NCBI RefSeq assembly: GCF_028641065.1
Contig: NC_073399.1
Coordinates: 3,410,001-3,474,000 of the forward strand
DNA length: 64,000 bases
Reading direction: 5' to 3'
DNA from: Leucoraja erinacea
Taxonomy: Eukaryota
In this document: piece after piece, positions 25,229 to 63,859 of the stretch
Numbering within the stretch: the stretch's first letter is position 1
Layout of the letters: every line of letters starts with the position of its first letter
Program-made: the position numbers and the translations under genes
Notes under the pieces: generated by a model
Databases searched by the model: none
Told to the model about the DNA's origin: nothing
Seen by the model: only the letters and a program-made list of their open reading frames with translations

Positions 25229-25469
25229 GTCAGTGCGGACATTGAGGGAAGAAATTGTCTTTTTCTTTGCTTGTTGAATATTGTTTTGCTTCTCCAGTCG
25301 AATAAGCACCTTTATTAATTAGGAACTTGATTTTACAATTATTTCCCAGATGGTGAGGATAATTTAACAGCTTGTGTGTTTACCATTGTCTATTTAGTCA
25401 AATTCACATATCAAATAACTAAAGTTTAAAGATATGTAGTAAAGGTGCTTAAACTCTGGTGCTGAGGCT

Positions 25470-27725
25470 CAACGAAGAAGAGTGATGTCAGGCAGAGCCG
25501 TAGTGGTGGGAGACACGATAGTCAGAGGTGCGGACAGGAGATTCTGCGAGACTCCAGGATGGAGTGTTGCCTCCCTGGTGCCAGGGCCCAGGACCTCACG
25601 GAGCGGCTGCACGGCATACTCAAGAGTGAGGGGGAGCAGCCGGAGGTTGTTGTGCATGTTGGCATGACTGATATAGGTCAGAAGAGGAAGGAGGTTCTGC
25701 AACACAAGTTTACGAAATTAGGTAGAAGACTGAAAAGCAGGACCTGCAGGGTAATGATCTCAGGATCGCTTCCAGTACATCGTTCTACTGAAGGCAAGAA
25801 CAGGAAGATAAGGGAAATGAATGTGTGGCTGAGGAGTTGGTGCAGGGGCAAGGATTTAGATTTCTGGATCACCGAGATCTCTTCTGGGGCAGGGGTGACC
25901 TGTACAAAAGGGAGGGGAGGACCAACATCCCAGCGGGCAGTGTTGCTAACGCTACACAGGAGGGTTTAAACTAGATTGGTGGGGGGGTGGGGGAATCTTG
26001 TGCAGGACAGAGGCACATGAGAAACTAGAAGTTGGTATGGAGGGTGGTGTGAGGAAGGTTCGTGGACAGAATAGGCAGGTGAAAGACGGAGAGCGAGGAA
26101 GGAAGGTTAGTTTATGGGTTAGTCAGCCATGATCATATTGAATGGCGGAGCAGGCTCGAAGGGCCAAATGGCCTACTGCTGCACCTATTTTCCATGTTTA
26201 AACTGCACGTATTTTAATGCAAGGGGCCTAACGGGTAAGGCAAATGAGCTCAGGGCATGGAGATACGTGCTACTGGGATGTTGTAGCCAAGACTGAAACC
26301 GGGTTAAGGAAGGGGGAGGACTGGCAGCTCAATGTGCCTCTTTTTAAGTGGCTGCAGGGAAAACGCTGGGAGCAATAGGCTGCTGAGTTGGAAAATTACT
26401 AGAGAGTATTCTGAGGGATAGGCTATACAGGCATTTGGATGGGCAAGGGCTGATTAGGGACAGTCCGCATGGATTTGTACGTGGAAGGTCGTGTCTCACA
26501 AGTCTGATTTTTTTACAGACATGATCAAAAAGGTTGATGAGAGCAGAGATGTAGATGTTGTGTACATGGATTTCAGCAAAGCATTCGACAAGGTTCCGCA
26601 TGGTAGGCTGCTCTGGAAGGTTAGATCGCATGGGATCCAAGGAGAGATAGCTGAACAGATAGCAAATTGGCTCCATGGAAGGAAGCAGAGGGTGATGGTG
26701 GAAGGTTGCTTCTCAGACTGGAGGCCTGTGACTAGTGGTGTGCCCCAGGGTTCGGTGCTGGGGCCATTACTGTTTGTCATCTACATCAATGATTTGGATG
26801 AGAACATACTGGGCAAGATTAGCAAGTTTGCTGATGATACAAAAGTGAGTGGTTTTGCAGGTAGTGAAGATGGTTGTGAATGATTGCAGCAGGATCTGGA
26901 TCGATTAGCCAGGTGGGCGGAGGAATGTTGATGGAATTTAATACAGAGACGTGTGAGGTGTTGCATTTTGGGACGTCGAACAGGGGCAGGACCTACACAG
27001 TAAATGGGAGGCCTCTGCATAGTGTTGTTGAGCAGAGGGATCTAGGAGTACAGGTGCATGGTTCTTTGAAGGTCGAGTCGCAGGTAGATAAGGTGGTTAA
27101 CAAGGCTTTTGGCACTTTGGCCTACATCAGTCAGAGTATTGAGTATAGATGTTGGGAGGTCATGTTGCAGTTGTATAAGATGTTGGTGAGACAGCATTTA
27201 GAATATTATGTTCAGTTCTGGGCACCATGTTATAGTCAAGCTTGAAAGGGTTCAGAAATGATTTACAAGGATGTTGCCAGGATAGAGGGTGTGAGCTACA
27301 GGGAGAGGTTGAGTAGGCTGGGTCTCTATTCTATGGAGCGCAGGAGGATGAGGGGAGATCTTATAGAGGTGTACAAAATCATGAGAGGAATAGATTGGGT
27401 AAATGCACAGTCTCTTGCCCAGAGTAGGGGAATCGAGGGCCAGAGGACATAGGTTCAAGGTGAAGGGGAAAAGATTTAATAAGAATCTGAGGGGTAATGT
27501 TTTCACACAAAGAGTGGTGGGTGTATGGAACAAGCTGCTAGAGGAGGTAGTTGAGGCTGGGACTATCCCATTGTGTAAGAAACAAGAGACAGGTACACGG
27601 ATAGGACAGAATTGGAGGGATATGGACCAAGCACAGGTAAGTGGGACTAGTGTAGCTGGGACATGTTGGCCGGTGTGTGGGCAAGTTGGGCCGAAGGGCC
27701 TGTTTCCACTCTGTATTACTCTGAA
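25470..27725 (+). mobile_element. Internally deleted CR1 LINE (ORF1 esterase, EN start, RT, 3' UTR)
   Basis: AVVVGDTIVRG and VVVHVGMTD (SGNH esterase-like ORF1). YFNARGL (EN start). [37 protein letters not shown] (RT). Stops and frameshifts present. Confidence 0.9.
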
Positions 27726-28028
27726 AAGTTTTGATAATTTCACCAACAGTAGGGTATTAGATAAAATGCAGAATTCTAGAATATTAATAAATGTCAAACA
27801 ATAATTGGAACTTTGTGAACTCAAGTAACTTGAAAATCATTGTAATATTACTCCTATCCAATGTCCAAATATTTACCATCTAGCAGCAATAAACTGGTAT
27901 AAGTGACTCGAATTTTTGGATGCAAGCTAAAAGCTAACTTTATAAAATTGATTCTAAATCAATGATTTGTAGTTTAAATTATAACATTGAATATGTATTT
28001 TAAGAAGTGCTTTATATCTTTGTCACAG

Positions 28029-32836: not shown

Positions 32837-33544
32837 GGGTCATATAGTCTTCAGTAGTTGTTACTAATTAAATGTGTTACCACAGTAAAATCTATTTTAA
32901 CGAATAGTATTTAAATTTGAACAGATATGGTCAAAGTAGTATTCCAGACTGGGTTGCATTGAAAAAAATTGGCATGTCGTGGAGTTTCTCCAATTGTCTG
33001 CATGTCACGCGTCTCATTTTATTACAATTAAATTGAGACGTCTTAATTCCAATAGCCTGCAGCCCCTAGTGGTGGTTAGTTCTATTAATATCAGCATTTA
33101 ATGGTAAGAGAATTTTAATTTTGAGCCTTTAGCCTGCAACTGCTGCTCCACCAAGCTCAATCTCCCACTCGAATGGTAAATATACTGTAGTCTATTATAA
33201 TTGCTGAAACAAAATGTTGCATTTTCCCCAGAGTTGGGGACTTATTTTCAGAATCTTAAGGCACTGTCCTGCTGAAGTAACAACTCACACAATACTATGC
33301 GATTGAAAAGAAACTAGGGCTTCACACATACCACCGTTTCCTGCAAATTCTAAACATTTCCAATTCTCATTTCCACATCTCTGCCCTGAATAGCATTTTC
33401 TCCTTTATCTACTGCTGTCCTTGAAGACTTGTTTGGGAATGCTCTGAAATTACAAAGCACAAAAACAAGTCTTTCAGCCCAACTTATCCCACACTTTCTC
33501 TGCTGCAATAGACTATCCAAGACATTCCGATTAACTCCCCTAGT

Positions 33545-33862
33545 TTTTCTTCTCTCCTCTATTATCAGAGTGAGGCCCAGTCCAAATTGGAGGAACAGCA
33601 CCTCATATTTCACTTGGGTAGTTTACACCCCAGCAGTATGAACATTGACTTCTCTAACTGCAGATAGCCCTTGCTTTCTCTCTCCATCCCCCTTCCCAGT
33701 TCTCCCACGAGTCTTACTGTCTCCGACTCCATTCTATCTTTGTCCCGCCCCCTCCCCCGACATCAGTCTGAAGATGGGTCTCGACCCGAAACACCGCCCA
33801 TTCCTTCTCTCTAGAGATGCTGCCTCACCCGCTGACTTACTCCAACATTATGTCTACCTTCA
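33545..33862 (+). mobile_element. Penelope-like element 3' fragment with hammerhead-like motif (33768-33795)
   Basis: Reverse-complement match to 15080-15430. CTGAAGA-tGGGTCTCGACCC-GAAAC-acc. Confidence 0.82.
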
Positions 33863-34053
33863 CAAAAGGTCTGGCCTGATAAATTGTGGAATGATAGGTA
33901 TGTGTGCACTTGATAAGGAAGGCAACAAAGTAGAAAGGCAAATTCAACACATCCTTTCTGAAAGTTGCCGATGGAATCCTGGAAACATAGATATTATAAT
34001 TTGAATATCCTATTGCGACATCCACATTTCTACAAAGATCAACTTAGTTTTAA

Positions 34054-34150
34054 AGATACACAAAAATGCTGGAGAATCTCAGTGGGTGCAGCAGCATCTA
34101 TGGAGCGAAGGAAATAGGTAACGTTTCGGGTCGAAACCCTTCTACAGACG
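34054..34150 (-). mobile_element. Short Penelope-derived element
   Basis: Minus strand CTGtAGA-aGGGTTTCGACCC-GAAAC-GTT plus family tail. Confidence 0.75.
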
Positions 34151-42472: not shown

Positions 42473-43151
42473 TCAAATGCCTATGTTTGGACTGAATAAA
42501 GGAATGTTCTTTATCACATTTGGCTTCATTAAAAAACTGGAAAAAAATGTACCATTTATAATCTTAATCAGCAGATTCTTACAGCAAACTTGAATAAACC
42601 TTCATTTAACTGCTCAGATACATGGACTGCAGTACATGTTGAAAATTGCACCAAGGTATCTCCAATTATAAAGTGATATTTTTCATTTTGTATTAAAACT
42701 ACAGTGCTATTCCTGGAAGTACACAGAGTGGCTGGAATAACTCAGCAGATCAGGCAGCATCTCTGGAGAATATGTGCAGGTGATGTTTCAGGTTGATACC
42801 CTTCTCCAGACCATGATCTAATTTGTCCCCTCTCCCAAAAACATTTTTGAACACGAAAATAGAAGTATTTAGTTTGATGCGACAGCTGTGCATTCCACAT
42901 GGGCAATGCAAGTTTCACTACTGTGATTGCACATATGGACGAACATTTCAGAACACAATTAATTGCCTTTTTGGGCAGTTCTATCATGTTGGGAATTAGT
43001 TTTATGATGCAAGATCTCATACCAAGTTAAATTTGGTGTAGCTTTTAATATGCATTACATAATCTATCTTGTACTCTATACTAGTGATCATATCACGGCT
43101 TCATTCCCTGCCACAATTAATCGTAACCTATTCTTATTCATTAAGTCATTA

Positions 43152-43541
<390 letters not shown>

Positions 43542-44735
43542 TTAGAGCAAGGGAACACAATTAATCCAATTGTTACACATTGAAATAAAGATGTGTATAC
43601 TATGTCTAAAATTATACAAAAAATGGCCACCTATTCCCAGTCTTCTTCCACTAATTAAATCACATCTTTTTGAAAAGATCTTTCCAGGTAGCGCATTCTT
43701 ACCGAAGATTTGGCTAAACATACCAAAACATCAATAAAAAAGCCATTTTTCAAATGGCTCACAGATTAGTCCAAGCACAACTTTTATTGACTGTAGAACG
43801 GCATTTTTAATTAAAGCCAGAGCATTTTATCCAATGCAAATTGATGTGTTAAAGCATGTCATATTTCGGCAACCTTGCTCAGTCCCATAGTACACCCCTG
43901 CATAACTTTGCTTTGGTAAATACTTGCACATGCCTGAAATATGCTGGAAAAACTACCAAGCATCTCTTAATAATACACTGAGACTACACGGTATGTTTAT
44001 TCATTTAGAAGACAAAAATGATAGATTTCATTGGTTCAAATTCTACCTATCAACAAACATGTTTCATTGAACTGAATTGAACCAAATCCTAACATTTCTA
44101 AGAATTGAAAGTATTGGCACAAAATAAATTAGATTCATGAAATATGATCCTTCTCCGTACAATCGGATTAGCCTTCTAGGTTTTAAGTATGTTCTATTTC
44201 TCAAAAAGATGAGATTGCCAGTATCAAAGATTAATGAATATTACAGTTATTTGTATAGACATCAAATCTGGAGCCAACAAGATTTCCTGGTGAATTCACA
44301 TTTGGTAAACTGCATCAAAGTTAGAAAAATATGTTAATGTGAACAATATCCAAGTAATATTGGAAAACAAATACTTTACGCAGTACTGACCAGCTTGCTC
44401 ATTAACAAGATAATTTGTGAAAATATGCACTTTGATAATAATAAATATTTAAGAGCACACTATCTTCATAGATATTAATGACAGGAGTACATTAAGAATA
44501 TCTTCTGCCTAGTCCTCCAACGCATCTCATTTATGGCAGCAAAGCCATAGTTTTAAAGATCACAGACGCAACTATCCTTAAAAGCCACAGAACAACCATC
44601 AACAAGAGAAAAGGAATAGTCAATTGCAGGATCTGGAGGCACTTGTCTCCCCCTTTCCTCAATAGGCAGTTTTGATTTAGCAGCATTTTTAATTCACTTC
44701 CCAGTCCCATCCTTTTATGTTCATGACATCTAGAT

Positions 44736-45003
44736 CATAGGTTTTCAAACTGGGGTCCATGATAAGATCCCATGGGGATTGCAAATATCATCTACATTAC
44801 AAGGAATCTTCAGAATTTAGCATTTAGATTTTGTTTGCAAAGGTGGAACTATCACATTGCAAACATTTTCTGCAAAACAAGGTTTTAACTGGGCAGCCTA
44901 GACCAGTGAACACGTTTAGAAGACAAAGGAGGGGGAGGGGGGGTCACCAAAACTCAGCGTTTTCAGGACTTTTTTCTTGTGCACAAAAGTTTGAAAACCA
45001 TTG
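44736..45003. mobile_element. hAT (Charlie-type) MITE
   Basis: TIRs cataggttttcaaact / agtttgaaaaccattg. 8-bp TSD atctagat (44728-44735) / atctggat (45004-45011). Confidence 0.75.
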
Positions 45004-45952
45004 ATCTGGATCACATTTGGCGAAGGATAAAATTGACTTTTGCAGCAATTGTGCGTTCAGTTGGTACTATTTCCAAAACCTGCAGATTGTGATTCTCTGG
45101 CAAATTTCAGTTTACGCTTCATTCAAGTATTTTCTAACTGATCTAACTTAGCCTTGCTCACCTTTTTCTGCGTGGGTGATTAATATATTATCCTTCCTCT
45201 AATAAAGGCCTTGTATGCTTTCCACTCTGTACCAAGAGAGGAGGTGTATTTTTCATTAAATATGAAATGTGACATACTTTTGCATCCTTTTTGAAAAGCT
45301 CTATACATTTGGAGTTTTAATTAATGACACGTGAGTGTGTCATCACATAATTCTAGGCTTCACCAAGGTATTGAAAAGTTGACCATTTTCAAATATTACT
45401 TACCAAATAATTTTAAAGCGATCATTATTCAGATAATGTAGTTCCAAATTAATTTTGGACATGCACAAACATTCTAAATGTCTTAATTGTTATTAAAAAA
45501 TCTGCCTCCGCAATGAGTGTGCTGTCTTTATTCAGTTTTATCCATCTTGCACATCAAGCAATGAATTGCCTTAACTAGTCAAAATGTGTTTACCACCGAG
45601 CTGAAAAAGCAACAATCACGCATCAACACAGCAGTGAGAATGGTCTCATGCCCAAACCCAGCTTCCTATTCCACCAAAAGAAATACACAAAAGCAAATGG
45701 AGAACAGAATCTCCATAAGATGTGTACTATTAACAAGTCACACATGTAAACCTAGTTATCGAATTCTACAAGTTGCAGGACCACACAGGTCATCTAGGAT
45801 ACAGATGAAGAAACACCATTACTGAGATCAGCAAGTGTACTGAAAGAAGCCCCAATGTCCAGAATTGATCAGAGGTATTGATGAGATACAAATCAAGCTT
45901 TTTTACAAAGGTTGAAAAACATGTAATATTCAAAACAATCCCAGAACAAAAC

Positions 45953-46126
45953 GTTTTAGAAGGAACAGCAGTTGCTGTTCAATCGAAGGTACACAAAAAA
46001 AGCTGGAGAAACTCAGCGGGTGCAGCAGCATCTACGGAGCGAAGGAAATAGGCAACGTTTCGGGCCGAAACCCTTCTTCAGTTTGTGTACCTTCGATTTT
46101 CCAGAATCTGCAGTTCCTTCTTAAAC
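45953..46126 (-). mobile_element. Penelope-derived mini-element with intact hammerhead core, inverted ends and 12-bp TSD
   Basis: CCAGAACAAAAC at 45941-45952 and 46127-46138. Imperfect inverted termini of about 45 bp. Core at 46054-46081. Confidence 0.85.
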
Positions 46127-46704
46127 CCAGAACAAAACAGCTTGTTGGCACAATGAAACCATTGAATAGTCAATGAAATTGTTAACCATTTGACATTTGT
46201 CTTAGAACCAGATCCACCAAATTAAAATCTTCAGGAACTCGGCTAGGTATGCAAAGCGCTCGCTAGACCACAAAGTGCAGCCGCTCATCACAAATTAAAG
46301 GTTTGACAAGAAAGAGTACGTTTCCACTAAAAGATTTTTACATGAGGGTCACATGTAAACACATAATGTAATTGCCTGAATTATACCACTGGAATCAAGG
46401 CAATCAACAACCACTCCAAATCATGACTTGAGGATCTGTTTAATCTTTATGTTCCAAACATCTATTACGTCACATGCTCAAGTAGACATGACTGCTCGCT
46501 TCATAGCTGTCAGCATTCACGATGAACTTGTCCTTTAACTGTTGATGATAGTATTGATAATGATTTATCAACTAGAGTAGATTCAATAAAACATTCTAGG
46601 AAGCCTGACCTCCTCTCTCAAGAACTATTACATTCATCATCTCTTCACTATTTTTCAGGTTTTCTTTCACATTTTTCTGTGACCAGTTGTGAAGTATAGA
46701 TCTA

Positions 46705-48258
46705 CAGTGCCCTCCATAGTGTTTGGGACAAAGACCCATCATTTATTTATTTGCCTCTGTGCTTCACAATTTGAGATTTGTAATAGAAAAAAAAAAAAAA
46801 AAAATCACACGTGGTTAAAGTGCACATTGTCAGATTTTAATAAAGGGTATATTTAGACATTTTGGTTTCACCATGTAGAAATTACAGGTGTTTATACATA
46901 GTCCTCCCTATTTCAGGACACCATTATGTTTGGGACACAGCAATGTCATGTAAATGAAAGTAGTCATGTTTAGTATTATGTACATACCCTTTGCATGCAA
47001 TGACTGCTTGAAGTCTGCGATTCATTTACATCACCAGTTGCTGCGTGTCTTCTCTGGTGCTGCTCTGCCTGGCCTTTATTGCAGCCATCTTTAGCTTATG
47101 CATGTTTTGGGGGCTAGTCCCCTTCAGTTTTCTCTTCAGCATATAATAAGCATGCTCAATTGGGTTCAGAACAGGTGATTGACTTGGCCACTCAAAAATT
47201 GACTGTTTTTAGCTTTGAAAAACTCCTTTGTTGCTTTAGCAGTATGGTTAGGATCATTGTCTTGCTGTAGAATGAACCGCTGGCCAATGAGTTTTGAGAC
47301 ATTTGTTTGAACTTGAGCAGATAGGATGTGTCTATACACTTCAGAATTCATTATGCTACCACCATCAGCAGTTGTATCATCAATGAAGATCAGTGAGCCA
47401 GTACCTTCAGCAGCCATAACACCCCCACCACCATGTTTCACCGATGAGGTGGTATGCTTTGGATCTTGGGCAGTTCCTTCTCTCCTCCTTACTTTGTTCT
47501 TGCCATCACTCTGATATAAGTTAATCTTTGTCTCATCTGTCCACAAGACTGTTTTCCAGAACTGTGGTTGCTCTTTTAAGTACTTTGTGACAATCTGTAA
47601 CCTGGCCTTACTATTTTTGCGGCTAACCAGTGGTTTGTATCTTGCAGTGTAGCCTCTGTATTTCTGTTCATGAAGTCTTCTGTGGACAGTGGTCATTGAC
47701 AAATCCACACCTGACTCACGAAGAGTCTTTCTGATCCGTCGGGCAGGTGTTTGGGGATTTTTCTTTATTATAGAGAGAATTCTTCTGAAATCATCCGTGA
47801 AGGTCTTCCTTGGCCTGTCAGTCCCTTTGCGATTAGTAAGCTCATCAGCGCTCTCTTTCTTCTTAATGATGTACCAAACAGTTGATTTTGGTAAGCCCAA
47901 GGTTTGGCTGATGTCTAACAGTTGTATTCTTGTTTCTCAGTCTCATAATGGCTTCTTTGACTTTCCTTGGCGCAAATTTGTCCTCATGTTGATAAACAGC
48001 AATAAAAGTTTCCAAAGGTGGAAAGACTGGAGGAAAGACTAAGTGCTGAGAGCTCTCTTATACTTGCCTATGTATAAACACAGCTGTCATTTCCACATGG
48101 TGAAACCAAAATGTATATAAATACCCTTTAATAAAATCTGACAATGTGCACTTTGACCACATGTGATTTTTTTTCTATTACAAATCTCAAATTGTGGAGT
48201 ACAGAAGCAAAAATAAATAAATAATGGGTCTTTGGTCCAAACATTATGGAGGGCACTG
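46705..48258 (-). mobile_element. Complete Tc1/mariner transposon with long TIRs and frameshifted transposase
   Basis: TA|CAGTGCCCTCCAT...ATGGAGGGCACTG|TA ends and TIRs of about 170 bp. ORF 47166-47900 has WTDETK and QQDND. WPSQSPVLNPIE lies in another frame. Confidence 0.95.
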
Positions 48259-49053
48259 TATTTCACGAAGAAAAGCATTCTAATGATTATGCAATCATTT
48301 ACTCAATTTGTCGAAATCACCCTTTTTCATTTTCTGAAAACGAACAATTCTCCCTCGAAACAGATCTTTCAGTTAGTTGATGAAACCTTGATTCCCTGCT
48401 TACTGATTCAGTAGCACTGCAAAAGCAGATTTGTTTTGAAGTGGAATCAAACAAGTTTGCATATTTTGAATTTCTTGATTTCTGAAGCAAATTCGTACTT
48501 CCACACTACTATTCATGTTTCCGTCATTTATAGCTAGATAGCTATTTTTCCTCACAAAATTCCAGAAAGTTTGATCTCAAAGTAACAAAACATATATACA
48601 ATGTTATTTTGGGGGAGATAAAATAGTGATGGCATTCAATCTGAAATCAGGTTTCAATGCATTACTTTTGTTTAATTGAAGATTTGCCATTATAAAGGAC
48701 AAGGCAGTTTGTGTTAAAGGGGGAATGTATTTTTTCCACAGTCAAGTACCAGATTTACGCAGAGATCACCGTGGCATCTGGATGTGATACCATAATTTAA
48801 CAAGACCTCAAAATTCTCTTCTGCTAATACATTCCAGAACAAATAAAATCATCAGCTTTATCACCAGCACACGAGTGTAAGATATTTGATGGAATATAAA
48901 ATTAAGGTTTTACCACCTTAAATTCCATTTTTGTCTCCCCACAAAATAAGAAGTTTTTCTAACCCTTTATAGATTATACCTCATATCAATGTTTTTTTAT
49001 TTAGATGACATGGCCATTCAAAATTACAAAAAATCATCATAATATGTGTGCTA

Positions 49054-49392
<339 letters not shown>

Positions 49393-50787: not shown

Positions 50788-52560
50788 TTAAGACCTGGAA
50801 CGCAACGCTACAACAAAGAAGCTGACTAGTTGTGGATCTCAGCTATGTCGGAGTAAACAAATAACAAATTAGCTGAGAAAGGAAATTATCAAAAATAGCT
50901 GCAGCTTGTCACTGCCACAATACGAGTGTTTAATAATAGATACACAACCCATTATTGTCCTTAAAGCTAGTACTAATCAAACCCATGGGTACCCCAGTGA
51001 ACAGTATAATTAATTTATTTCAGGGTTAGTTGGCAGCATCTTCAACATCAGAGGGGGACATACAAGATTATGGCCAGAGCACTTCACATATTCATCCTTT
51101 AATAAGACATCCCTATTTTAAAAAAAAAAACTTAGATGAACACATTTTACCAGTTCAAAAGTTCACTCTCCTGCAACAACAAATCTGCACATACCATTTA
51201 TTTCCCCCATGGTTCCATTCTCAGTTAGTACAGCAATTGGATGCACATTCATGTTAAAGATTTGTTGAAGCCAAATGAAGGACAATAAAACCCACATTAC
51301 ATTCACCAATAGTTCCTTTTTACACAATGTTTTTGACAGTCCATTTTTGTATTTCTCATTGTACTATGCATACACTGTACTTTCTTGAAGATCTCAGATC
51401 TCCTCTTTTAAATTCTGATACGTTTCCTATGCTCAGGATTACTGTTCTTTTTTCGGCAACATTATAAGCCTTCACTTTATACACTCCTTACAATTCCAAA
51501 TTTTCTCAACATTTTCTGGTCAAAAGGTCAGATAAGTTGTGTTGACTATGTCACACATTTGCAATATACACAAATATACTCAGATTTTCACAAGAGACGG
51601 TACCATGACAGCACAGAATTGTTTTTTAGGCCCCAGTGTTTTTAAAATGGTCATTTGCTGTGTAGATATTTCTCATGGTTCCACAGCATTCCAGTAGGTG
51701 GCACTCTAGTTAATTTCCTTATTATATATGTATGCACCTTCTTGCCATTTAAGAGTACTTTATATTTAGAAAGAAGAGTTATACAACACTAAATGCTGAC
51801 TTGGCAAAATGTCCAACCCGAGAATCATTGGCTCTATCAATTAGATTCTTCCTTCCTTTCATTGCGAGGTAGTCATTAAAAAATGGTTCTAATTTTCATT
51901 ATAACAGAGGCAAAATATGACCATGCATGCATACAATAATGTTCAGAAGTTCACTAAAAAGTAATAATTCAAATCATTTAAAATACATTTGTTGGCAACA
52001 TGTTATAACAGTGCATAGTATGAGAATTTTATAACCATCTTTTTCTGAAAGATCAGTCCTCCAGTTACATTTGCCAAAGTGTGTGATTGTGTATATGTTT
52101 ATGTTATATATTTAAAAAAGAATGAAGAATTCATTCAGATTTAAATTTTTCAGATGTTGTCAATAACCTCACACAAGTATGGACTATGTCAATTTGGAAT
52201 CACGTACAGTATTTTGTGGAATATTAAAAAAAAAGTGCATTCTACACATCATAGAACATTGAACAGTACAGCACAGAAACAGGCCCTTCAGCCCACAACG
52301 TCTGTGCCCAACATTATGCCTGTTTGCACGTGATCCATATCCCTCCATTTCCTGCATCTCCATGTACCCATTTAAAAACCTCTTAAACGTCACCGTTGTA
52401 TATCTGCCTCCATCACCACCCCTGCAGCATTTTGCAGGCACACACAACCCTCTGTGTAAAATACTTGCAACAACCATCTCCTTTAAATTTTCCCCTTTAA
52501 TCAAAGCTATGTCCTTGACTCCTGGTCTTTTCCACCCTGCTAACAATGTTCTGATTGTCT

Positions 52561-52716
52561 GGGAAAGAACTGCAGATGCTGGTTTAAATCGAAGGTAGAC
52601 ACAAAATGCTGGAGTGACTCAGTGGGACAGGCAGCATCTCTGGAGAGAAGGAATGAGAGACATTTCGGGTCGAGTCCCTTCTTCAGACTGAGTTACTCCA
52701 GCATTTTGTGTCTATC
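52561..52716 (-). mobile_element. Penelope-derived mini-element nested in an older CR1 fragment (about 52250-52855)
   Basis: TSD TTCTGATTGTCT at 52549-52560 and 52717-52728. Minus core CTGAAGA-aGGGactcgaCCC-GAAAT-GTC. Fold-back end. Confidence 0.85.
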
Positions 52717-53032
52717 TTCTGATTGTCTATCCCAAATATGTTTCACATAAATTTTTATATACTTCTATCAGGTCTCCACTCAACCTCAACGGTCCAGACA
52801 AAACAATTCAAGTTTGTCCAACTTTTCCATACAGTTAATGCACTCAATTCCAGGCATAAGCATTTGACCCACTGGTCAAAAAGAATAAGACTAATATAAT
52901 TAACACATGTAGGTAAATGGATACATTTACAATAGCCAGCTAAATGTAATTTTTTTAAGACAAATGCTGTTATAATTATCCCTTTAGTAGAAAACCTCAA
53001 ATCCAGAAACATACCCCTGGCATAAGTAACTA

Positions 53033-53895: not shown

Positions 53896-54729
53896 TTATC
53901 AAAGAACATTGTTACTTCTCAAAGACTTGAGAACTTTGAGTTATTAAGGAAAAAAAATCTGTCACTGAATTTTGCTCAAAACCAAATGTTTTCACACATC
54001 ACAAAACACTTCTGTTTGAATGAACAAATTCTGTTAGTGTAATGTAGTATGAGGAAGGGTCCCGGCCCAAAACGTTGCCTATCCATGTTCTCCCAAAACG
54101 CTACATGACCCAATGAGTTACACCCAACACTTTGTGTCTTCTGTTATATTGAAAACCACCTTTAATCTATATGTTCAGATTTTAATTAACTTGGTATCAC
54201 TTAACACATGCTGCAAAAGAGTTACGGATCTAGCTTTGACTTTCTTCAGAAGAAATAGAAGGTTTATTTAAATAATGACACTGGTGCAAGACAATTTTCA
54301 TGACACGCTGCTCAGCCAGGGCAGACAGACCTTGACCCTGGACCTAGTCTTTATTAGAGACCCCGGCAATGCTCCAAGTAAACACCAAATTCACCACAGT
54401 GGATTGAAAATGAATCTACCCTTTTTGAAAATCAAATTAGCTGTTTTCAAATTGCTTAATAGGTCTCTGGTCATTTTCATCTGAAATGTTAAATTAAGAA
54501 CATTTGATATATTGGTTACCAGTTTAACAATTCAGTTGATTCCCCTTTTCTATTTTGCCTGTATCCCTCCAATCTATTCCCCTTCAGGTACCTATCAACT
54601 TTGCAGATTGACACTTACACTCATTTACAGTAGCCAATTAAACAAACCAATTTGTCTTTGGGAAGTGGGATGATCCAGCTAAAACCTATGTAGTTACAAG
54701 TAAAATGATCACAGCCCACAAAACAGACA

Positions 54730-55954: not shown

Positions 55955-56101
55955 AGAAACAAATAACTGCAGGTGCTGGTTTGTACCAAAGGTAGACAAA
56001 GTGCTGGAGCAACTCAGACTGAAGAAGGATCCTGACCTGAAACGTCATCTGTCCTTTTTCTCCAGAGATGTTGCCTGACCCGCTGAGTTACTTCAGCACT
56101 G
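55955..56101 (+). mobile_element. Fold-back Penelope-derived mini-element with hammerhead core (56019-56046)
   Basis: Inverted tail joined to CTGAAGA-AGGatcctgaCCT-GAAAC-GTC. Confidence 0.78.
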
Positions 56102-56369: not shown

Positions 56370-56746
56370 ATTGAAACATATAAGATTGTTAAGGGCTTGG
56401 ACACACTAGAGGCAGGAAACATGATCCCGATGTTGGGGGAGTCCAGAACGAGGGGCCACAGTTTAAGAATAAGGAGCAAGCCATTTTGGAACGGAGACAA
56501 GGAAACACTTTTTCTCACAGAAGGTGATGAGTCTGTGGAATTCTCTGTCTCAGAGGGCGGTGGAGGCAGGTTCTCTGCATGCTTTCAAGAGAGAGCTTGA
56601 TAGGGGTCTTAAAGATAGCAGAGTCAGGGGATATGGGGAGAAGGCAGGAACGGGGTACTGATTGGGGATGACCAGCCATGATCACAATGAGTGGCGGTGC
56701 TGGCTCGAATGGCCGAATGGCTACTCCTGCACCTATTGTCTATTGT
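56370..56746 (+). mobile_element. CR1 3' end
   Basis: IETYKIVKGLDTLEAGNMIPMLGESRTRGHSLRI plus CR1 3' UTR. Confidence 0.85.
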
Positions 56747-56949
56747 AAAAAGAGCAGCTTGATCAGTAGATATATTCATAGTCAGTCTACGAGTCCAGAA
56801 TCTGAGTGCTTACACAAGAAACTGGAAGCACTCGGATTGTGATTACCTATTATTATTCTGCATTCTCAACCATATGCAAATTGTTTAGAGGAGGGTTACC
56901 CCACCTCTCTTGCACTACATTCAGCTCTGGATTAGCTTGACAATAAGAA

Positions 56950-57400
56950 CACTAGCAAGTTTGCGGATGACACTGCCACCCAGCTTTGTGTCATCCGCAA
57001 ACTTGCTAGTGTTGCTCCTAATTCCCTCTTCCAAATCATTATACACACACCGAGCCTTGCATATATGTATACATATATGTATATATATACACTCGTCACT
57101 GCCTGCCATTCTGAAAAGGCCCAGTTCACTCCTACTCTTTGCTTCCTGTCTGCCAACCAATTTTCTATCCACGTCAACACCCTACCCCCAATACCATGTG
57201 CTCTAATTTTAGTCACCAGTCTCCCGTGCAGGACCTTATCAAAGGCTTTCTGAAAGTCTAGATACACTACATCCACTGGCTCCCCTTCATCCATTTTACT
57301 TGTCACATCCTCAAAAAATTCCAGAAGATTAGTCAAGCATGATTTTCCTTTCATAAATCCATGCTGACTTGGACTAATCTTTTTACTGCTATCCAAATGC
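56950..57400 (-). mobile_element. CR1 reverse-transcriptase fragment
   Basis: SQHGFMKGKSCLTNLLEFFE...VDVVYLDFQKAFDKV and KFADDTKLGG. Confidence 0.88.
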
Positions 57401-57679
57401 TGTGTAATCCTGCACCATTCTGCTGTTTGAACTCGTCGCCATATTATTACTATGTATATTGTTTACACTGAGCTTCAAGTGAGAAAGGAATTTCATTGCA
57501 AACTGGTGTACACAATAACAATCTAACTGAATTGTGTTACTTTTCTCCTTTCATCTGCAACAGTTCAAAATCCATCTTTATAATGTAAATTTTAGTCAGT
57601 TCTCCTGCAGTCATTTTGACTTCAATTGTCAATTGAATAAACTAATGCATATGCCAGAATGCCACTATCCAGTATCTTA

Positions 57680-60084: not shown

Positions 60085-60418
60085 ACTTCCCGATGTTGGG
60101 GAAGTCCAGGACAAGGGGTCACAGCTTAAGGATAAGGGGGAAATCCTTTAAAACAGAGACGAGAAGAATTTTTTTCACACAGAGAGTGGAGAATCTCTGG
60201 AACTCTCTGCCACAGAGGGTAGTTGAGGCCAGTTCATTGGCTATATTTAAGAGGGAGTTAGATGTGGCCCTTGTGGCTAAGGGGATCAGAGGATATGGAG
60301 AGAAGGCAGGTACGGGATACTGAGTTGGATGATCAGCCATGATCATATTGAATGGCGGTGCAGGCCCGAAGGGCCGAATGGCCTACTCCTGCACCTAATT
60401 TCTGTTTCTATGTTTCTA
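60085..60418 (+). mobile_element. CR1 3' end
   Basis: Reverse complement of 3147-3505, with (tttctatg) tail. Confidence 0.88.
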
Positions 60419-62710: not shown

Positions 62711-63155
62711 TTAGTCCTAGACGAGAGAAATTATCGCCAAATAGATATTCAGAAGACAAAAGTTATCTTTGGGGTTCTTGTCACAAACTCTACGTCCTAA
62801 CCAATGATCATTTGTCTCCCCGGCAGATGTTTAAAATTGATTACGGCCGTTGGTAATGAAACAAGCCGCTTTAGTTTTGTCTCCTCTGCTGTTATGCCCT
62901 CATTCATATATTTGGTATTTCCAAGTATTGCAACAGATAGCTGTCCGGTCTTTCTCATTTTATATATTGTAATTCTCATCCAGACAATACAATACAATAT
63001 CCCAACTCTCAGTGTATCATTCATGCATCACTGTTGAATTTCCTTAAAACCTACTTTGGGACAGGATGTTCAAGTGTCAAATTTATTTGCTACTGATCCT
63101 GTGAATCAATTTTGCCAAATTAAAAGATGCTACATTCCACAAACAACAAATTTTA

Positions 63156-63281
63156 GTCAAAAGGGTCTCGACCCGAAACGTCACCCATTCCTTCTCTTCA
63201 GAGATGCTGCCTGTCCCGCTGAGTTACTCCAGCTTTTTGTGTCTACCTTCAATTTAAACTAGCATCTGCAGTTCCTTCCTA
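63156..63281 (+). mobile_element. Penelope-derived mini-element with 11-bp TSD
   Basis: AACAAATTTTA at 63145-63155 and 63282-63292. Begins inside the hammerhead (aagggtctcgacccgaaacgtc). Confidence 0.82.
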
Positions 63282-63859
63282 AACAAATTTTACGGTGCAT
63301 TATGAATTTCTGGTAGTGGAGTGAGTGTTCTTTGCAAAGAGCCCCAAACTGATTACAAAAACATATCTAGCATGCTTTTGGCCTCACATAATGACTATTC
63401 AGTAACTTGTATTACTAATTAAAACTTACTGGAATTTTTATAGCAAATATGGCAAGTAATTATAGCTCTCCTAACAAGCAAATATTTATGATTGACTACT
63501 GAATAGAACAGGTCAAAATACATCCACAGTCTTGCACAACTGATTAAAAAAAGTCAAATAACTTTAATTTACTGTATTCCTGTATATCAATGTATAATAT
63601 GCAAACACATAATATTCTAGAAATTATCTAGACTAAGAAAAGGCAAAAGGTTTACATATTAACATATATGTACATCTGTATATGCGCTACATGATTTCGG
63701 GAAGTCAAGGTGTCACAAGGTGCTTTGCTGCTGATGTGTTTTCAAGTATAAAGTAAAAAGACACAGCCAGATGTTTCGACAGAGCAATGAAATAAATGTA
63801 CAGATCATTTGTTTTAGGTGGTGATGGAGGGATAAATATTGGGAAGACACTAACTCCAC

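Follow-up and report, generated by a model that had tools for sequence, protein, structure and literature searches.

Hammerhead-bearing repeats around FOXK2 in Leucoraja erinacea are most probably singly inserted 3′ ends of a Neptune-type Penelope-like element

Minimal hammerheads in the ends of Penelope-like elements (PLEs) are known and are common in cold-blooded vertebrates, so their occurrence in a fish genome is in itself ordinary; dispersed PLE minimal hammerheads in vertebrate genomes have already been published, with approximately 4,000 motifs in coelacanth and 9,000 in Xenopus (PMC4209133). The pseudo-LTR (pLTR) hammerheads described by Cervera & De la Pena (2014, PMC4209133) resemble those of the window, which is the whole 64-kb stretch of L. 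erinacea DNA analysed here, in having CUGANGAH with an extra base, a G10.1-C11.1 pair and a GAAA-CG-U-H palindrome, in their pLTR position, and in occurring mostly as single dispersed copies tied to truncated PLEs with an inverted second copy nearby. However, the 4-bp helix II of the window family is at the short end of the published range, and its 2-bp helix I, made up of a G-C pair and a U-A or U-G pair, is weaker than the 2-bp examples of two G-C pairs in Fig. S3 of that study. In the same work minimal hammerheads showed no cleavage when single and only weak cleavage as dimers, and no cartilaginous fish name appeared in the supplement files searched. The Neptune clade of PLEs (PMC8557442) shares with the window family a C-terminal GIY-YIG-type endonuclease with CCHH residues and a Cys linker ahead of it (intact in two homologous proteins, P0002 and P0006), 5′ truncation, an inverted 5′ copy and an optional tail, whereas the window family is without an RT within the 64 kb and its clade is set by motif and host group. 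The Poseidon element of Anolis carolinensis (PMC11167929) is alike in carrying the hammerhead near the pLTR end, in having insertion 3′ ends approximately 100-130 nt downstream, and in its AT-rich targets, and differs in belonging to another clade; its ORF begins inside helix II. The accessible text of that study describes neither the 5′ ends of the RNA nor solo units whose 5′ start is fixed. Cleavage by the Anolis hammerhead required protein, and insertion in vitro did not need the hammerhead. Non-LTR retrozymes (PMC7229834; 10.64898/2026.07.22.740005) are likewise non-coding, with a type I hammerhead and kinship to PLE pLTRs, but are tandem, with mostly canonical hammerheads and circular RNAs, whereas the window copies are solo, minimal and flanked by target duplications (TSDs); of nine Xenopus retrozyme dimers, one cleaved (10.64898/2026.07.22.740005). 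The role of PLE hammerheads has been called unclear (PMC8557442). No paper on the present family in skates or sharks was among the literature matches listed, and it may well be catalogued in Repbase or Dfam, which lay outside the scope of the searches.

The initial annotation of this DNA, made from its letters, had read a hammerhead core at 46081-46054 on the minus strand, within FOXK2 (the focal copy), and had named 13 further sites. Re-reading gave an exact match to CUGAAGA-A-GGGU(UUCG)GCCC-GAAAC-GUU, a minimal type I hammerhead core. A profile built from eight window copies was then used to search the window alongside five Markov controls, in which the best E was 0.95; it recovered the unit at all 13 other sites, so that every one of them is present, together with a core-bearing copy at 13580, and also matched 3′ fragments of the unit at 2532, 8545, 16209, 18179, 24870 and 61122. 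The start of the hammerhead is kept in 15 copies, and the local density is high, at about one copy per 4 kb of the window, in support of the initial annotation on this point. A fixed-spacing core pattern with at most one mismatch gave 18 matches against 6.35 expected, a count reached in 0/100 shuffles. A strict minimal-hammerhead descriptor (core, helix II, palindrome and UH), of the kind the initial annotation had proposed, was run on the 64-kb window and matched only the focal site (46081, minus) and 7889 (plus), with no match in 100 Markov controls. Rfam at its gathering threshold matched no family in the whole window, hammerhead included, and at E ≤ 10 the interval 45900-46200 gave no hammerhead and only unrelated families. 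The best Rfam match near the focal locus was a miRNA-precursor model, far below cut-off, that fits the long inverted repeat described below. Head-to-head palindromic remnants consisting of only the 3′ half of the unit were also seen at 18114-18211 and 24817-24910.

Table 1. Coordinates of the focal insertion, the other hammerhead-bearing copies, the PLE ORF fragments and the host intron in the window
Feature	Position	Strand	Basis
FOXK2 host intron	43535..49175	-	exon boundaries; forkhead Pfam matches; FOXK2 best PDB match
Focal insertion: TSD, upstream copy, 12 bp	46127..46138	-	identical to 45941-45952
Focal insertion: inverted 45-bp copy of the element 3′ end (tail); abuts C3 and takes the place of the helix I 5′ arm	46082..46126	+	84% identity to inverted 45953-45997
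Focal insertion: pseudo-LTR 3′ unit, 129 bp, hammerhead to tail, subfamily B	45953..46081	-	first 88 nt 81% identical to ORF-linked copy at 15174
Focal insertion: hammerhead core CUGAAGA (C3-A9); extra A at 46074	46075..46081	-	sequence; fits PLE consensus CUGANGAH (PMC4209133 Fig. S3)
Focal insertion: helix II, 4 bp with 4-nt loop	46062..46073	-	sole helix predicted by RNAalifold on 13 copies
Focal insertion: GAAA, palindromic ACGU (minimal helix III, 46058-46055), N17=U; putative cleavage after 46054	46054..46061	-	sequence; strict descriptor
Focal insertion: TSD, downstream copy, 12 bp	45941..45952	-	TSD reading
Longest copy: 11-bp TSD, inverted pLTR (15975-16110, plus), 3′ part of PLE ORF, pLTR with hammerhead 15174-15147, TSD	15066..16121	-	
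ORF-linked copy (hammerhead at 19716) whose ORF-to-hammerhead spacer differs	19304..19846	+	
ORF-linked copy; hammerhead at 33768	33533..33862	+	
Short copy, 18-bp TSD (2 mismatches)	7869..7992	+	core, palindrome, helix II and 2-bp helix I intact
Short subfamily B copy, 11-bp TSD; GAAA broken	11418..11534	-	
Subfamily B head-to-head palindromic insertion (12829), both arms internally deleted, 16-bp TSD (1 mismatch)	12765..12926	-	
Short subfamily B copy (34147); A6 mutated	34050..34149	-	
Short copy (52686), inverted 3′ arm, 12-bp TSD, in the sense of FOXK2; damage to the palindrome and to helix II	52549..52728	-	
Short copy (63157), 11-bp TSD; 5′ core deletion	63145..63292	+	
Divergent copy (56019) with inverted 3′ arm	55963..56100	+	
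Divergent copy (42809), broken core	42715..42811	-	
Divergent copy (54049), broken core	54046..54144	+	
Divergent copy absent from the initial annotation, broken core	13580..13650	+	
Decayed Neptune-type PLE ORF C-terminus (Cys linker and GIY-YIG-type endonuclease), one in-frame stop and a frameshift	15316..15944	-	
Another C-terminal piece of the endonuclease, from the same PLE, truncated by the window edge ahead of the pLTR	1..342	-	

Thirteen of the 15 start-keeping copies were aligned, 12829 and 15990 being excluded for internal deletions. The core (CUGANGA / GAAA / UH) is intact in the focal copy, in the consensus of each of the two subfamilies (A and B) and in 4/13 aligned copies, and is broken in the other nine; the ACGU palindrome (15.1-16.1, the helix III of a dimer) is present in eight, the focal copy included. 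Helix II, with G10.1-C11.1 and the extra base after A9, has 96% of its cells paired across the 13 copies. Core, palindrome and full helix II are together intact in two copies (46081 and 7889), and a 2-bp helix I is present in addition in 7889 alone, which makes this copy a better cleavage candidate than the focal one. The helix I of about 2 bp given in the initial annotation holds for the family, in which it is seen in consensus A and in 7889, but not for the focal copy, where it is 0 bp because the inverted arm abuts C3 and places AAA 5′ of the core, unable to pair with the GCC past the cleavage site. Decay of the CpG type is enriched (19/78 versus 27/284 cells, p = 0.002), although it accounts for 19 of the 46 changes in the hammerhead region and not for most of them, as had been proposed. 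Where C11.1 has changed on one side only, the change is C>T within a CpG that also gives rise to the core-breaking G12>A in 3/13 copies.

An origin from a Penelope element, proposed by the initial annotation, is shown within the window by the copies at 15174, 19716 and 33768, which continue upstream of the hammerhead into the C-terminus of a GIY-YIG endonuclease. The decayed ORF of approximately 630 bp at 15066-16121, read with X at the stop, is 45% identical over 177 aa to P0002 of Lepisosteus oculatus, a protein in which RT motifs are accompanied by a C-x5-C-x2-C linker and a GIY-YIG-type motif. Among the matches listed (two of 380 candidates in the search of longer proteins and 22 of 67 in that of near-length proteins), Leucoraja erinacea and Heptranchias perlo supply the closest named homologs of the protein fragment, and a gene model of Leucoraja erinacea is 64% identical to the ORF fragment. 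Pfam matches GIY-YIG only below cut-off, both in the window fragment read through its stop (E = 0.33) and in P0002 (E = 0.0016), and did not recognise it in the stop-to-stop endonuclease fragments of the window. The 64-kb window contains no RT part of a PLE, tblastn of P0002 matching only residues 216-424, and no full-length PLE. The linker CX2-5CxxC marks Neptune and Nematis PLEs (PMC8557442); it is intact in P0002 and P0006 and lacks one cysteine in the window copy. The family is here called Neptune-type by motif and host group, the linker being shared with Nematis. An inverted 5′-truncated copy, a tail and short TSDs are a described PLE layout (PMC8557442, PMC3846280), and an inverted 5′ pLTR, a tail and a target duplication are all found in the window. 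In the 100 nt ahead of the hammerhead, 19716 is 57-58% identical to the other two long copies, compared with 83% in the ORF end and 77-88% in the unit, which makes the unit the conserved module. In the public skate and shark gene models P0006, P0007 and P0020, endonuclease pieces are joined to unrelated sequence, and these models are probably annotation chimeras with PLE remnants.

TSDs of 11-18 bp, mostly AT-rich, delimit seven insertions in the window; at 13580, 19716, 33768, 34147, 42809, 54049 and 56019 the automatic TSD search returned only chance-level candidates, which were not counted. Inverted arms accompany 46081, 52686, 56019 and 12829, their length varying from copy to copy, and an inverted pLTR is present at 15990. 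Two subfamilies can be separated. Subfamily B comprises 46081, 11522, 34147 and 12829, all four short and sharing diagnostic bases, whereas subfamily A includes both long, ORF-linked copies and short copies of the same unit. The A and B consensuses differ at 0/13 core and palindrome positions and at 13/67 others (p = 0.11), the B consensus being built on three copies with the focal one among them. Subfamily B is a young one. In the stretch that separates the 3′ end of WDR45B from that of FOXK2, the copies 33768 (plus) and 34147 (minus), which belong to different subfamilies, lie tail to tail with approximately 190 bp between them.

Taken together, these features make it probable that the repeats derive from a Neptune-type PLE, as 3′ (pseudo-LTR) ends of it that were inserted singly, that the hammerhead was under selection in the parent element, that the copies decay neutrally, and that the focal copy most likely does not cleave FOXK2 RNA. 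The RT and GIY-YIG endonuclease of the element would insert units one by one, giving the 11-18-bp TSDs and often an inverted 3′ arm. Reverse transcription, which in a lizard PLE begins internally at the tail (PMC11167929), would start at the tail approximately 130 nt downstream of the hammerhead and run to the 5′ end of the unit. The parent would carry a minimal hammerhead (2-bp helix I, 4-bp helix II and palindromic ACGU) maintained by selection; by analogy with published PLE data, its ribozyme probably cleaves only as a dimer and with help of the element's own protein. After insertion the copies would decay neutrally, the perfect core of the focal copy being due to its young insertion, and this copy in FOXK2 is most likely an inert leftover.

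The part of this explanation that concerns selection was assessed by counting non-CpG changes against the consensus in the 13-copy alignment, with misaligned columns of the 63157 copy excluded. Over all 13 copies the core had 8/124 changes and helix II 5/91, compared with 72/613 outside them (core p = 0.11), and core and helix II together were somewhat more conserved than the rest (13/215 versus 72/613, p = 0.018). In the nine copies at least 88% identical to their own consensus the core (4/84) and helix II (3/63) changed as often as elsewhere (23/429; core versus elsewhere p = 1.0), whereas in the four divergent copies core and helix II had 6/68 changes against 49/184 elsewhere (p = 0.002); this split into young and divergent copies was made after the fact and on few copies, and retention of the core may favour the detection of divergent ones. 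Neutral decay in the close copies with conservation in the divergent ones is most simply read as selection in the source lineages, that is, of the hammerhead in source elements, with neutrality after insertion. RNAalifold on the 13 copies predicted helix II only, and 0/6 pairs of helices I and II had changed on both sides; of the two signs of constraint that the initial annotation had suggested looking for, conservation of core and helix II is seen in the divergent copies and covariation is not. Copies inside the two host genes are six in sense and six in antisense orientation, numbers too small to reveal modest selection.

Among 22 sense units (inverted arms excluded), 11 start at -5 to +1 of C3 (p ~ 1e-7 versus a uniform start over -20 to +60) and none at the cleavage site, and cleavage does not define the inserted unit within this window. 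Seven of these 11 are delimited by a TSD or an inverted arm (p ~ 1e-4); for the other four, the absence of upstream homology could reflect a different spacer. The clustering suggests either a short RNA start or a fold-back point. A start of the RNA fits, as copying from the tail to the 5′ end would give the unit, and the three long copies match at -3 what we take to be the initiator consensus, YYANWYY. Penelope has been found to have an internal promoter (PMC2377424).

Alternatively, the boundary may be a DNA-level hotspot, set by cDNA fold-back and self-priming at the odd palindrome TCAG-T-CTGA or by a CAG splice acceptor as in D. virilis Penelope; this proposal is limited to the boundary, is compatible with the main explanation, and seems to us plausible, if on balance doubtful. 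It does not readily account for 7889, 11522 and 63157, which start at -3 to -1 with the TSD directly adjoining and without an inverted arm, nor for the initiator match in the long copies, whereas the insertion at 12829, a head-to-head palindrome centred on TCAG-T-CTGA, and the joining of 52686 and 56019 via TCAG microhomology speak for it. Palindromic junctions have been taken as self-priming elsewhere (PMC3846280), and the D. virilis intron ends at helix I (PMC4209133).

It is a tentative possibility that the PLE protein mass-produces an element of approximately 130 nt from the first bases of the hammerhead, either copied in 'strong-stop' fashion from the 5′ leader of its own mRNA or supplied by a non-autonomous master devoted to it (subfamily B). 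In that case the RNA 5′ arm would be only 3 nt long and the ends not set by cleavage, the hammerhead would be a protein-assisted switch or RNP handle and not an excision tool for the transposing unit, and a genome with the density seen here would preserve a natural record, of very large size, of where PLE copies start and stop. Since the family is dense and its ends can be read from TSDs, whether cleavage, a transcription start or fold-back defines the unit lends itself to a genome-wide test.

A non-autonomous family was already suggested in the initial annotation; that the short copies, above all those of subfamily B, are such a self-standing element, with an RNA of approximately 130-175 nt, its own master loci, a start at the hammerhead and PLE protein supplied in trans, is rather unlikely. 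Its basis is the 11/22 units starting within -5 to +1 of C3, seven of them firmly delimited, and the fact that all four subfamily B copies are short with common diagnostic bases and that no B parent is seen in the window; in rotifers, pLTR sequences alone are enough for mobilisation in trans (PMC3846280). However, subfamily A makes ORF-linked and short copies from the same unit, the inverted arms vary in length as expected from formation at insertion and not from inheritance through a master, the focal element contains no Pol III boxes, and four B copies are too few to count against an ORF-bearing B parent. The label 'SINE-like' of the initial annotation was not upheld in the Pol III sense, as the window contains no tRNA and the focal element no A or B box by a simple consensus. 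A 5S or 7SL SINE head would have appeared in the whole-window Rfam search, and none did.

In the RNA of the focal insertion, the inverted arms close a long hairpin (-72 kcal/mol, z = -5.1), which in the FOXK2 intron (45953-46126, minus; 45-bp arms) is a possible double-stranded RNA or editing substrate and is more likely than the ribozyme to affect the FOXK2 pre-mRNA. The right arm contains at 45963-45980 a perfect 8-bp inverted repeat with a 2-nt spacer that is imperfect in the left arm and in the 12829 copy, and the mismatches between the arms, which are clustered, look as if a quasi-palindrome had been corrected by template switching. For the focal helix II within 400 nt of intron sequence the predicted pairing probability is approximately 0.01, and a pyrimidine tract farther downstream is predicted to pair at approximately 0.87 with G8, A9 and the 5′ strand of helix II, in nearest-neighbour predictions that ignore tertiary contacts, proteins and co-transcriptional folding. 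Short-window folding showed no structure beyond that of shuffles (z -0.55 to 1.18). Across unit positions 6-41 in all copies, the bases past the cleavage site repeat the helix II 3′ strand (ACCC/ACCC in subfamily A and GCCC/GCCU in B); in both subfamilies, the predicted minimum for most copies is therefore an alternative pairing in which the core is hidden, and this could be a conserved off-state.

With a helix I of 0 bp, due to the inverted tail having replaced its 5′ arm, and a helix II probability of approximately 0.01, cleavage of the FOXK2 pre-mRNA by the focal copy is predicted to be unlikely, in support of the doubt already raised about its activity as a monomer; of the claim that an intact copy lies in the cleavable sense, the orientation stands, but a working ribozyme, with the helix I 5′ arm absent and the RNA predicted to misfold, is not supported. 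It is accordingly very improbable that the focal copy, alone or with a second sense copy, cuts this pre-mRNA as an intronic ribozyme that is active or has been co-opted: its core, palindrome and helix II are perfect, it is in sense orientation and 42809 and 52686 are also sense in the same pre-mRNA, but in 52686, the only upstream partner with which helix I could reach 2 bp, palindrome and helix II are both broken, the focal homodimer is predicted as an extended duplex and not as a double hammerhead, and depletion from the sense strand is not seen among the copies in the two host genes. Equally remote is a non-LTR retrozyme whose tandem hammerhead repeats yield circular RNAs by double self-cleavage, a label used in the initial annotation. 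The type I hammerhead related to PLE pLTRs and a 2026 preprint reporting pLTR-derived retrozymes in one chondrichthyan genome (10.64898/2026.07.22.740005) speak for it, but no tandem array in the window contains the unit, same-strand copies are at least 1.3 kb apart, the hammerhead is minimal instead of canonical, and the cleavage site is the unit start in 0/22 cases.

The host gene assignment of the initial annotation was confirmed: the forkhead exon is closest to FOXK2 in PDB, the gene is on the minus strand and the focal copy is in sense to it, with eight FOXK2-like exons visible in the window; the focal intron is presumably intron 6 by human numbering, if one exon lies past the window. The other window genes are the 3′ end of a gene with Ras and SOCS-box domains and a PROPPIN gene closest to WIPI3/WDR45B (plus, ~9480-31028). 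We take these to be RAB40-like (2704-4242) and WDR45B (9480-31028), which with FOXK2 (37321-64000) presumably lie in the order of human chromosome 17q25.3. Two assembly gaps (N runs at 9597-9734 and 10059-10451) fall in C-rich/CA-repeat sequence in the first WDR45B intron. The focal FOXK2 intron also contains the decayed remains of a DNA transposon of the Tc1 type (47169-47936, minus), whose inverted repeats lie at 46703-46901 and 48068-48260. Other retroelement fragments, with RT pieces, an esterase-like ORF and many 3′ ends of 200-400 bp, which we assume to derive from CR1/L2-type LINEs, are located at 25466-27800, 56370-57462, 3143-3695, 60087-60418 and elsewhere in the window.
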